DNA of 11,021 bases from a virus. Taxonomy: Duplodnaviria > Heunggongvirae > Uroviricota > Caudoviricetes. The stretch lies in IMG/VR virus record IMGVR_UViG_2648501338_000008. One strand, written 5' to 3'. The stretch's first letter is position 1, and every line of letters starts with the position of its first letter. Made by a program: the position numbers and the translations under genes. Shown piece after piece: positions 7,152 through 10,222 of the stretch. The notes under the pieces are model-generated. The model searched no databases, was not told where the DNA came from, and saw nothing but the letters and a program-made list of their open reading frames with translations.

Positions 7152-7478
7152 TCATAACACCGTCGGACAACGCAAATCGTAAATCAGCACGGACACAGAA
7201 AACGGCAGCTCCCCCTGAACCAGGTCTTCCCGCTCAGCAAGATCCGGATTCCGGTACAGCATCCCGGTCAGTCGCATGGCAGCCCCCTTCATCCGGGTTA
7301 ATGCCTCGCCCGGGATCAGCTCACCGTCCTCACGAATCACTTTATCCCGGCTACCCTGAATGTAGGCCAGCAGCACGGCGGTAGCCTGACGAACCTTGTC
7401 CATCAGCATGTCATCATCCGCGTCATGGTCAACACGCAGATGTGCCTTGATCTCTTCCAGTGTCAGTAATGCCGTCAT
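7152..7478 (-). CDS. gp6-like head-tail connector protein, 108 aa
   Basis: N-terminus MTALLTLEEIKAHLRVDHDADDDML matches the gp6-like connector signature (TLEE-K-HLRID-DDDD). AGGAGG sits 8 nt upstream. The ATG at 7478..7476 overlaps the stop of the upstream 915-aa ORF (ATGA). Confidence 0.75.
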   Translation of the reverse strand: MTALLTLEEIKAHLRVDHDADDDMLMDKVRQATAVLLAYIQGSRDKVIREDGELIPGEALTRMKGAAMRLTGMLYRNPDLAEREDLVQGELPFSVSVLIYDLRCPTVL

Positions 7479-10222
7479 TTTCCGCCTCCTGCATCCCGTC
7501 CACGTTTGGCAGCCAGGGTCCAGCCTGATGAATGAGCTTCTCCGGGTTTATCACCGGTCATACTGTTGCAGTGCCACAGCGAGCCCCCCCACGTCACCGT
7601 ATCACCGGGGTGGTAGGTTTCACCGGCTCTGAACACACCGCGGTAGAGCATCACCGGCAGGGAAAATGTTTTTTCCGTACGCTGGCCACTGCTCTGCCGG
7701 ACCACCACAGTGAACGACCGTTCGCCGGTCATGCTGACGTCAATATCGGCCACCCCGTCAACCAGGCATTCCCATCCCCGCATCCCGTGCGTTTTTTCAT
7801 ACGCCCGCCAGAGTCCGCCCTGGTGTGTGGCATACGTGCCCCGGGGAAAGGATTTTTGATCGTCAATGGCGGGGATTATTTCCAGTGCCGTGGCATCACG
7901 CCCGTCCTGCGGAGCCGGCAGGGCTCTCACCGCATCCAGAACAGCCTTCTGCAGAACATCGGGATCATAGTCACGACCATCACGCGGAACAGGAATATGG
8001 CTTACCGCCTCTTTCACCATCTGTTCAAGCATCGGACGCACATCATCGGGGGTAATACTTTTGCCGTCCGCCGGTACCGGAATATTCGCGACCGCATCAT
8101 TCACCGCCTTCTGCAGTACTTCCGGATCGTAATCACGACCATCACGCGGAACAGGAATATGGCTTACCGCCTCTTTCACCATCTGCTCAAGCATCGGACG
8201 CACATCATCGGGGGTAATACTTTTGCCGTCCGCCGGTACCGGAATATTCGCAACCGCATCATTCACCGCCTGCTTCAGTACTTCCGGATCGTAATCACGA
8301 CCATCACGCGGAACAGGAATATGGCTTACCGCCTCCTTCACCATCTGTTCAAGCATCGGACGCACATCATCGGGGGTAATACTTTTGCCGTCCGCCGGTA
8401 CCGGAATATTCGCAACCGCATCATTCACCGCCTGCTGCAGTACATCCGGATCATAATCACGACCATCACGCGGAACAGGAATATGGCTTACCGCCTCCTT
8501 CACCATCTGTTCAAGCATCGGACGCACATCATCGGGGGTAATACTTTTGCCGTCCGCCGGTACCGGAATATTCGCAACCGCATCATTCACCGCCTGCTGC
8601 AGTACATCCGGATCATAATCACGACCATCACGCGGTACCGGAATGGCCCCCACAGCATCATCCACCATCGCCTGCAGAACCGGACGCACCTCATCCACCG
8701 TCACATGCTTCTGTAATACCGCCGACAGGGAAGTCAGTTTCTCTTCAAACGCTTGTGCCTGCGAGGCCATCTTCCCCTCAAATGTGCGCTGTAAATCCGC
8801 CAGCACCGTGGAGAATTCTTCGCCCAGTGCACGAATAATGGACAGTTCCCGTTCCGTCATTTTCGCAGTATCCCCCCTGAACATCGCTTTCACCGCATCA
8901 TGCTCTGTTTCACTGATTGCCTTATTACCGTCAGATGCGCCGTCAGGCAGCTGTGATGAAACTGTTTTCCCGGCAGACGCGAACGGATCCTCACGGGCAT
9001 CACGACGGGACAGCGCCTCCAGACTGTAGTTCTGCTGCTGAAGATACAGTGCATCACCGCCGGCAAGGGGCGGCAGGTTCTCACGTTTACGGGCCTCATT
9101 GGGCGTGAGAAGCGTATTTTTCACCGAATCACCCAGCGTTTTCATGCGACGCTCACTGTCCATTCTCAGCAGCGTGGTGACATCAAACTCCGTACTCTCG
9201 TTTTCCCCCGTTTCCAGCGCCTCATCCAGTAACAGCTCAATGGACTCAATCAGCGTCTGCAGACACTGGGAATAATACTGCTGCTCCAGCGCCTCCACGT
9301 TGTCACTGGAAGGCGGCTGGCCAACGCCAATCTTGTAGGCCGGGACACGGAACACCGAACAGACAATTTCAGCCGTCATCTTCAGTTGTTCCACCGTCTG
9401 CGCATCCACAGGTGAAAACGTCGTGGGGTTATATTTCGCCCCGTTGCTCAGAATGGCCGTTTTCCCCGCATTTTCGCCGGTATACCAGCTGTCCCAGTTG
9501 CTCTTCAGTTTTTTCGCATTTTCTTCCGTAATACTGCCGGGGATCTCAATCACCCCGGACGGCCTGCCGCCATTTCTGAAAAAAGACGTCGAATTTTCCT
9601 GAATATGATGCCCCTGCGTGGCCGCCAGCCCGGCGGCATACACCGGCGGCAATCCTATAAGCGGATGAAAAAAACAGTTAAACCGGTCGTGGATCACTTC
9701 CCGGGCAGGCACCGTCACCGCCTCCGTGATCCCGCAGTTCCGGTCCGGCGTGATGCGGTAGAACACCTCGCCGTCATCCGCCACCAGAGGTTCAACCCGG
9801 CTCCAGTCCAGAATACGCAGTTCTTTGATCTGCCCCCGGGCATTACGGATTTTCAGCACCACCGTATTGCCATGACGCAGTTTGGCGTTCAGCCACAGTT
9901 CAAAAAACTGGATGCGGTTCTGCTGGGCGTTGGGACGACGACAGAGGCGGGCAATATCCCCCCGGCGCGTTTCCCTGCGTATCCCATGCGCATCCGTCTG
10001 CATAAGACGCAGCCGCATTTTGGCGATATCCTGGGATATCAGCGAAATACAAGAAAACACCGCATGAAAGGAGAGGACACCTTCAGGATCGGCTTTCACG
10101 CCCTGCTGCCAGGCGCCGGAAAAAGGCTCAGCCACCGCCTGAAACAGGCTGGTCCAGCCCACCTCTCTTACATCACGTCCTGATTTCTGGTTTTTTCGGG
10201 TTCGCCGCAAAAGGTTCCACAT
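7475..10222 (-). CDS. Portal-domain protein with a long C-terminal extension, 915 aa: HK97-family portal-like core (about aa 1-400), about five tandem 54-aa repeats, and a C-terminal carbohydrate-binding-like domain
   Basis: Core has portal family motifs as I recall them: FFRNGGRPSGVIEIPGSITEENAKKLKSNWDSWYTGENAGKTAILSNGAKY and SPVDAQTVEQLKMTAEIVCSVFRVPAYKIG (compare FF-NGA-PSGvL ... sG-N-GK-avL ... DaQ-LE-rkf--eeIa--F-VP). ATG at 10222..10220 with GGAG about 8 nt upstream. No in-frame stop anywhere in the ORF. Size and C-terminal content are atypical for a portal. Confidence 0.6.
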   Translation of the reverse strand: MWNLLRRTRKNQKSGRDVREVGWTSLFQAVAEPFSGAWQQGVKADPEGVLSFHAVFSCISLISQDIAKMRLRLMQTDAHGIRRETRRGDIARLCRRPNAQQNRIQFFELWLNAKLRHGNTVVLKIRNARGQIKELRILDWSRVEPLVADDGEVFYRITPDRNCGITEAVTVPAREVIHDRFNCFFHPLIGLPPVYAAGLAATQGHHIQENSTSFFRNGGRPSGVIEIPGSITEENAKKLKSNWDSWYTGENAGKTAILSNGAKYNPTTFSPVDAQTVEQLKMTAEIVCSVFRVPAYKIGVGQPPSSDNVEALEQQYYSQCLQTLIESIELLLDEALETGENESTEFDVTTLLRMDSERRMKTLGDSVKNTLLTPNEARKRENLPPLAGGDALYLQQQNYSLEALSRRDAREDPFASAGKTVSSQLPDGASDGNKAISETEHDAVKAMFRGDTAKMTERELSIIRALGEEFSTVLADLQRTFEGKMASQAQAFEEKLTSLSAVLQKHVTVDEVRPVLQAMVDDAVGAIPVPRDGRDYDPDVLQQAVNDAVANIPVPADGKSITPDDVRPMLEQMVKEAVSHIPVPRDGRDYDPDVLQQAVNDAVANIPVPADGKSITPDDVRPMLEQMVKEAVSHIPVPRDGRDYDPEVLKQAVNDAVANIPVPADGKSITPDDVRPMLEQMVKEAVSHIPVPRDGRDYDPEVLQKAVNDAVANIPVPADGKSITPDDVRPMLEQMVKEAVSHIPVPRDGRDYDPDVLQKAVLDAVRALPAPQDGRDATALEIIPAIDDQKSFPRGTYATHQGGLWRAYEKTHGMRGWECLVDGVADIDVSMTGERSFTVVVRQSSGQRTEKTFSLPVMLYRGVFRAGETYHPGDTVTWGGSLWHCNSMTGDKPGEAHSSGWTLAAKRGRDAGGGK
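7890..8700. repeat. Direct tandem repeat array, 162-bp unit, about 4 near-identical copies plus degenerate flanking copies, in frame inside the 915-aa ORF
   Basis: The string tcacgaccatcacgcgg recurs at 7971, 8133, 8295, 8457 and 8619 (exact period 162). Copies starting at 8295 and 8457 appear identical; the others differ by a few substitutions. Encodes repeated VRPMLEQMVKEAVSHIPVPRDGRDYDPDVLQQAVNDAVANIPVPADGKSITPDD, itself two related 27-aa half-repeats. Confidence 0.9.

Follow-up and report, generated by a model that had tools for sequence, protein, structure and literature searches.

The window analysed here is the whole 11,021-nt stretch of IMG/VR record IMGVR_UViG_2648501338_000008 (Caudoviricetes), and its main feature is an open reading frame (ORF) on the minus strand at 7475..10222, which begins with ATG, is open throughout without interruption and codes for 915 amino acids (aa). 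The ORF very probably represents an HK97-type portal gene and the separate gene that follows it, here designated X, two adjacent genes of the head module read as one in a single frame. The 915-aa protein is identical to RefSeq entry WP_052915905.1, named 'phage portal protein', and therefore the gene is already catalogued and its sequence is not new; the entry sits on an 11,021-nt draft contig, which is the window, complete. The single uninterrupted 915-aa frame given in the preliminary description was confirmed, as was its layout, in which an HK97-type portal core is followed by a helical stretch, repeats of 54 aa and a carbohydrate-binding-like end. What had been taken there for one 100-aa helical linker is helix in its second part, the N-terminus of X from M455, but its first part (aa ~400-454) is a disordered acidic tail of the portal.

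The portal gene proper lies at 8857..10222 (minus strand). In the allele with five G at the junction (G5) it ends at a TGA overlapping the ATG of X (as ATGA) and codes for 454-455 aa. The HK97-family portal domain is located at 9077..10063 (minus strand). Within the N-terminal 400 aa, previously described as portal-like, Pfam Phage_portal PF04860 was matched at aa 54-382 with E 2.5e-79 and 267.2 bits against a cut-off of 39.1 (model positions 2-321 of 321), and NCBIfam TIGR01537 (portal_HK97) at aa 45-388 with E 5e-104 and 348 bits against 112 (model positions 2-343 of 343). The solved HK97 portal 8cez aligns by sequence with aa 45-400 (E 3.7e-20), and 9lbn_H was matched by sequence at aa 44-420 (E 8e-28). 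Judged from these alignments, residues 1 to about 450 are those of an ordinary HK97-family portal, which agrees with the family in every feature compared here. An extra acidic tail of about 50 aa closes on a conserved short motif. A second, canonical portal gene upstream, which had been considered earlier, is absent from the relatives covering the upstream region, where TerS, TerL, a protease-capsid fusion, a small ORF, the portal gene and X were found.

The two genes meet close to a run of six G (G6; CCCCCC on the plus strand) at 8872..8877 (minus strand), which covers codons R449-G450-D451; five G at this place give two genes and six give the fusion. The ATG of X (M455, opening MTERELSII) is at 8858..8860 (minus strand), with a purine-rich AGGGGGG 11 nt upstream. 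The junction of the window reads GCG ATG TTC AGG GGG GAT ACT GCG AAA ATG ACG, that of the PPompW prophage TTG AGG GGG ATA CTG CGA AAA TGA, and that of the split allele generally TT(C/G) AGG GGG ATA CTG CGA AAA TGA, with the ATG of X lying within AAA TGA. G6 versus G5 at 8872-8877 is the sole frame-changing difference between the window and the split allele. The G5 frame encodes a portal end KAM(L/F)RGIL(R/K)K-stop, in place of which the G6 frame puts GDTAK, and only the G5 frame encodes the conserved portal tail. This tail, K(A/S)M(L/I)RG(L/I/F)(L/I)xK-stop, is common to most enterobacterial loci checked, with Pantoea, Kosakonia, Kluyvera, Citrobacter, Phytobacter, Enterobacter and phage FSL SP-016 among them. 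The remainder have close variants such as MLKG; MIRGMIAK, MLKG... and SLRGIIQNG were read in Buttiauxella, Erwinia, Rouxiella, Serratia and one Salmonella prophage, and the portals of Alphaproteobacteria keep a KGL motif. The start of X, MNERELSLIKALGEEF, is as conserved as the portal tail. The Arg-Gly before the stop is coded by AGG GGG in Escherichia coli, which creates the homopolymer, versus AGA GGA in most relatives, with no G run. A run of five G was found in E. coli prophages and phages and otherwise only in Pantoea (L106) and Phytobacter (L114), the other relatives checked having runs of 2-4.

In relatives, the two halves of the ORF are separate genes. One genome per species was scanned for conserved motifs of X, and among the 50 loci that carried a portal gene too, 49 had separate genes and one, in Brevundimonas sp. 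CEF1 (L151, 2109-3959), had a portal-X fusion. In the 49 separate loci, the start codon of X is at most 14 nt from the end of the portal stop codon and overlaps the stop in 46, mostly as ATGA. Separate genes are also carried by four cultured phages, namely BP-4795 (ORF58 and ORF59), Salmonella phage FSL SP-016, Pseudomonas phage PAJU2 (ORF006 and ORF007) and Rhizobium phage RHph_X2_26, and by the metagenomic phages L008 and L009. Salmonella prophage L004 has a portal of 478 aa and an X of 220 aa with an 8-nt overlap, and Logan contig L006 has a portal of 450 aa and an X of 251 aa with a 4-nt overlap. PPompW prophages and BP-4795 are annotated with two coding sequences, a portal of 454-455 aa and then an ORF of 461-462 aa (MTERELSII or MNERELSII) overlapping the portal stop, and the ATGA overlap of the ancestral form is preserved unchanged in the split E. 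coli allele.

Because most relatives use AGA GGA and the conserved portal tail needs the G5 frame, the two-gene form is taken as ancestral and the portal-X fusion as derived from it by one extra G. In E. coli, AGG GGG makes up a run of five G in which a single base is readily gained or lost; the sixth G of the window shifts the portal frame into that of X, removes the stop and gives the fusion. Neither a new portal architecture nor a portal-derived paralogue, both suggested in the preliminary description, is supported, as everything after aa 454 belongs to a distinct gene, which is conserved in these relatives and has its own start there.

The fused allele is also common. Among 93 junctions of E. 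coli prophages (IMG/VR loci and named phages), 43 had G6 and 50 had G5. For complete genomes, 49 full-length matches were sampled evenly down the ranked list and their state was judged by length modulo 3, without reading the G run; 19 lengths were divisible by three and 29 were one base short. On a neighbour-joining tree of the upstream 1330 nt, the G5/G6 state changed at least 9 times, and 27 near-identical pairs differ in state. Phage 2851 has G6 and BP-4795 has G5, and strain C325 has a fused gene of 2748 nt that is 99.0% identical to the window gene. Match lengths of 2747, 2585 or 2423 nt point to the split form in most of the Stx phage genomes deposited. Since G6 is common elsewhere in E. 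coli prophages and complete genomes, the fusion is a genuine recurrent allele and no error peculiar to the window contig. The plaque-forming phage phi330 (L003, PV189401.1, 3875-6623) has G6 together with a 2-nt insertion at portal aa 426, by which the frames are set apart again. In its record, X has three more single-base indels, located in the repeat and the C-terminal part, which may be errors of the manual Sanger sequencing used or true changes, and the published mass-spectrometry maps cover short-tailed phages only; phi330 was dropped as a functional test of the fusion on these grounds.

Several observations weigh against reading the ORF as a portal gene joined to a separate gene. About 40-46% of the E. 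coli copies are fused, and they include otherwise intact-looking prophages, such as that of strain C325, and phage 2851, which is reportedly inducible and infective. The NCBI Prokaryotic Genome Annotation Pipeline (PGAP) takes the fused form as intact and the split form as a frameshifted pseudogene, and independent fusions are known beyond E. coli, in P0187 (1237 aa) and in the Brevundimonas locus. The count of G5/G6 switches could be inflated by recombination among the many related prophages that reside together in one genome, and no virion proteomics or structure of X was found in the literature looked at. The frequency of the fusion, its presence in phage 2851 and in prophages with otherwise intact structural genes, the annotation and the other fusions would all favour the explanation that the 915-aa polypeptide is the intended functional portal with a built-in capsid-internal C-terminal extension (a P22-barrel-like element in cis or an ejected domain), the split copies being decayed pseudogenes. 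This is quite improbable, however, as two genes are present in 49 of the 50 species and in the four cultured phages, none but the split frame has the conserved portal tail, the ancestral overlap is retained in the split E. coli allele and the split form prevails among deposited Stx phage genomes. The insertion that separates the frames again in phi330 points weakly in the same direction, given the other indels of that record.

The repeated switching of state would also suit a regulated recoding or phase-variation site, at which slippage or reversible G5/G6 switching gives free portal and fusion in a set ratio, as in the tail chaperones G/GT. The run is purine-rich and Shine-Dalgarno-like, and the G5 sequence can be read as having two places where a slip by -1 would yield the exact fusion, G GGG for tRNA-Gly ahead of the rare AUA and A AAA UGA for tRNA-Lys. 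No slippery run is shared by the relatives, however: most of them read AGA GGA, where G runs reach 2-3 at most, and five or six G are few for efficient slippage. A stimulatory structure downstream was not found either, though no search aimed at one was made. A programmed frameshift of the G/GT type was rejected because the candidate slip sites at the junction are not conserved among relatives, and recoding in general is very improbable. That sequencing or assembly wrongly put the extra G into the draft contig, with the two-gene form in the source strain, is the most improbable explanation. Some sequencing platforms make errors in homopolymers, the window is itself a complete draft contig, and a second frameshift lies at 2098 in its tape-measure gene, absent in C325 and phage YYZ-2008, but that lesion is a complex substitution with an indel and no homopolymer slip. 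An error in the window contig alone was rejected, as G6 was found in 43 of 93 junctions and, by match length, in about 19 of 49 sampled complete genomes, in addition to the nearly identical fused gene of C325. That the ORF joins separate genes by mis-assembly, named in the preliminary description as a possible refutation, is thus right about the joining but not about its cause, which is a widely circulating 1-nt indel allele.

Gene X (7475..8860, minus strand) codes for 461 aa plus stop and would give a fibre-like protein coupled to the portal; the stand-alone family in PHROGs is phrog_1289. A long N-terminal alpha-helix is predicted at 8714..8854 (minus strand; X residues 3-49), and the start M(T/N/D)ERELS(I/L)I is conserved. 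Hydrophobic residues in the helix are spaced 3-4-3-4 when read from the sequence, which suggests a coiled coil. A 162-bp tandem repeat of 4.3 copies with 97% matches was found by Tandem Repeats Finder at 7944..8644 (minus strand). The 54-aa unit consists of sub-repeats of 25 and 29 aa, each opening with IPVP (nine such starts at aa 527-743) and each made of one short helix and an IPVPxDG linker. In E. coli prophages, X is 245, 299, 353, 407, 461, 515 or 569 aa long, in steps of 54. The repeat acts like a variable-number tandem repeat in IMG/VR loci L010-L099, and contigs often stop within it, so that draft assemblies break there. An AlphaFold2 model of a short natural X (245 aa) has an N-terminal helix of 47 residues, a short helix per sub-repeat with proline-rich turns between, and a beta-rich end; in this single-chain model the N-terminal helix has pLDDT of 65-87 and heptad-like spacing.

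The C-terminal beta-rich domain (7478..7912, minus strand; aa 771-915) has a predicted CBM5/12-like fold, and its two invariant cysteines and conserved aromatic residues recur across homologues. Residues 771-915 alone reach 25.0 bits with Pfam PF02839 (CBM5/12), for which the gathering score is 26.2, and the whole protein reaches 18.6 bits, both below the cut-off. Many X homologues have a precomputed PF02839 match, and the fold resembles solved chitin-binding domains. The carbohydrate-binding-like C-terminus proposed earlier is therefore retained as a CBM5/12 (chitin-binding) fold, although the Pfam family itself is missed by about 1 bit. Foldseek against viral models returned phage collagen-like, ChiC_BD and tail-fibre proteins. 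PDB sequence and profile searches with X gave nothing beyond weak matches over the CBM motif, and Pfam and NCBIfam searches with the linker and repeats gave only sub-threshold chance matches (TetR_C_35 and FliG_N).

The family of X counts 5651 clusters (50% identity) at E <= 1e-3 and 2451 at E <= 1e-10. Its members are mostly 210-690 aa long, and most of those scanned have no portal domain. A first homologue search was not used for architectures, as it held only proteins of up to 251 aa, many of them fragments at contig edges. X is a large uncharacterised family that always stands directly after the portal gene of one portal clade, in Alpha-, Beta- and Gammaproteobacteria. Gly-X-Y collagen-like repeats replace part of the stalk in homologue P0120; such repeats were found only in some homologues and not in the window protein. 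Fusion P0187 has about twenty 27-aa LPxPEPEPLPDI repeats. No study of the extension or of X was found in the literature on YYZ-2008, Pankowvirus, phage 2851, PAJU2 and portals with a homopolymer or frameshift.

The HK97 gp3 portal (8cez/8fql) is one of the closest known systems; aa 45-400 align with it and the profile scores are far over the cut-offs. The neighbours in the window are HK97-like too (gp6-like adaptor, head closure protein and gp10-like protein). Unlike in HK97, the portal gene stands here after the protease and capsid genes, which are fused into one, and not before them, and it is followed by a coupled partner gene that HK97 does not have. The P22 gp1 barrel is similar in that a helical element is C-terminal to the portal core, and the helix of X would project from the crown where the two genes are fused. 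In relatives of the window, however, this element is a separate protein. Its predicted helix spans about 47 residues and leads into repeats and a beta-rich domain, and PDB searches gave no match between P22 gp1 and the window protein in sequence or fold. The P22 barrel, named as precedent in the preliminary description, fails in its defining feature, as the extension lies outside the portal chain in 49 of the 50 species loci; since relatives encode the extension on its own, a P22-like barrel as a new portal architecture was rejected. Some fibre and decoration proteins of phages have a stalk, collagen-like or made of repeats, that ends in a CBM5/12 (ChiC_BD) domain, but gene X sits in the head module, coupled to the portal, and not among tail-fibre genes, and its stalk of alpha-helical IPVP repeats differs from that of collagen-stalk fibres. 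SPP1 gp7 and MuF-type minor head proteins, known also from MuF polymorphic toxins, are encoded just after the portal gene and are sometimes fused to it, and X resembles them in both respects. Domain content is wholly different, and no Pfam match to Phage_Mu_F or other similarity to it was found in the window protein or in ten X homologues. Position and natural fusion suggest that X is a portal-associated minor head protein.

The order of genes on the minus strand is protease-capsid C-terminus, a 73-aa ORF, the 915-aa ORF, Ad1, head closure protein, gp10-like protein, tail terminator, major tail protein, tail chaperones and tape measure. The C-terminal part of the prohead protease (S78)-major capsid fusion is at 10434..11015 (minus strand), cut off by the window end. 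In relatives, Peptidase_S78 and the HK97-type major capsid protein form one gene of 645 aa before the portal gene (L001, 6852-8789), an unusual order. The complete head module of YYZ-2008, C325 and Salmonella L004 likewise has the unusual order TerS, TerL, S78 protease-capsid fusion, small ORF and portal, and TerL, protease-capsid, small ORF and portal follow each other also in PAJU2 and many X-carrying prophages of Proteobacteria. The conserved 73-aa ORF between the capsid and portal genes (10168..10389, minus strand; phrog_829) shares 55 nt with the start of the portal gene; YYZ-2008, C325 and BP-4795 have it as well, and ORFs of similar size are at the same position in Salmonella relatives. 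The head-tail adaptor gene Ad1 (gp6-like) is at 7152..7478 (minus strand), and its ATG overlaps the stop of X by 4 nt. Because this overlap is ATGA, like that between portal and X, the three genes form a chain of overlapping genes, which are probably translationally coupled.

Window DNA is 94-99% identical to long-tailed Stx1a, Stx2a and Stx2c phages, YYZ-2008 and phage 2851 (Pankowvirus), and equally to the prophages matched in 1247 complete E. coli genomes. Its tape-measure gene (1242-4485, minus strand) is split into ORFs of 797 aa (2092-4485) and 307 aa (1242-2165) by a 1-nt insertion within a complex substitution at about 2098 (GAGCTCCGTGAACG versus GAGCCAGAGAACG), and it is a single gene of 1080 aa in YYZ-2008 and C325. 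As the tape-measure gene is broken, the window prophage is probably defective, whatever its portal state. The major tail protein (5223-6077, minus strand) has a C-terminal Ig-like domain (Ig_2/I-set, aa ~195-280) with similarity to Hoc-like decoration proteins. Its listed GTG start is probably too far upstream, the probable start being the ATG at MSALYERSQ, and a T-rich stretch just upstream (5998-6006) differs in length from YYZ-2008 and C325.

In the two-gene form, the portal of about 455 aa would form the vertex ring for entry and exit of DNA. Given the overlap of the ATG of X with the portal stop, ribosomes that reach the end of the portal would probably go straight on to X, and the two proteins would be made in similar quantity. 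The N-terminal helix of X is a likely attachment or oligomerisation part, followed by a spacer of short helices and proline-rich turns, whose number varies freely, and by a tip with the CBM5/12 fold. In the fused allele this coupling of termination and reinitiation would be lost, and free X could arise only from the internal ATG with its distant purine-rich stretch. We infer that virions contain X as a minor protein, placed at the portal vertex or close to it, and that its distal domain binds a glycan. There is nearly an even chance that it is an external head or neck fibre, because the stalk length varies freely, collagen-like variants exist and the structural neighbours are fibre-like. The portal C-terminus faces the capsid interior in solved HK97-type portals, and a fusion at this internal end, a further point against the proposed arrangement, fits an external fibre poorly. 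As natural fusions to the portal C-terminus recur, X may instead be an internal protein, attached to the portal, associated with its crown or ejected, although this is rather unlikely; that it is something other than either is unlikely. In one specific internal arrangement, which is improbable, a barrel in trans would be built from twelve N-terminal helices, docked on the portal crown or prolonging it, and the stalk and CBM5/12-like domain would be stored in the head, leave with the DNA and perhaps hold peptidoglycan. With X bound to the portal inside the capsid, it would be understandable that fusions to the portal C-terminus are tolerated and have come about repeatedly (E. coli G6, P0187 and L151).

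In annotation by PGAP, the two-gene state appears as a 'frameshifted; incomplete' portal pseudogene and the fused state as intact (L104, AC NZ_AP018488.1, versus L105, AC NZ_CP124819.1). On the comparative evidence, this polarity is backwards. Stand-alone X is mislabelled 'portal protein' in PHROGs (phrog_1289), apparently carried over from fused E. coli entries, and in Rhizobium phage RHph_X2_26 (AC MW960037.1 among the records). Fragments of X are elsewhere named 'gp6-like head-tail connector', 'carbohydrate binding domain protein' or even 'ParA'; the first of these names, given to Klebsiella fragments, was rejected as an annotation artefact, X and the next gene being separate in locus L007.

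The gene is thus already catalogued and common, and the value of the finding lies in the wrong polarity of the databases and in the uncharacterised, portal-locked family of X. The fused form became the reference 'phage portal protein', and the ancestral split form is consequently flagged as a pseudogene in E. coli genomes. The gene pair has prophage matches, those of Stx1a, Stx2a and Stx2c phages among them, in 1247 of 5426 complete E. coli genomes, and calls of prophage intactness are therefore affected. The portal itself is ordinary, and the location of X in the particle could readily be studied with the fused and split alleles that exist in nature; a GluC peptide spanning the portal-X junction of the G6 fusion is HDAVKAMFRGDTAKMTE. 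If X does lie in the capsid, particles would have X free or tethered according to the state of the G5/G6 tract, and X would represent a new, widespread class of portal accessory proteins in phages of Proteobacteria.

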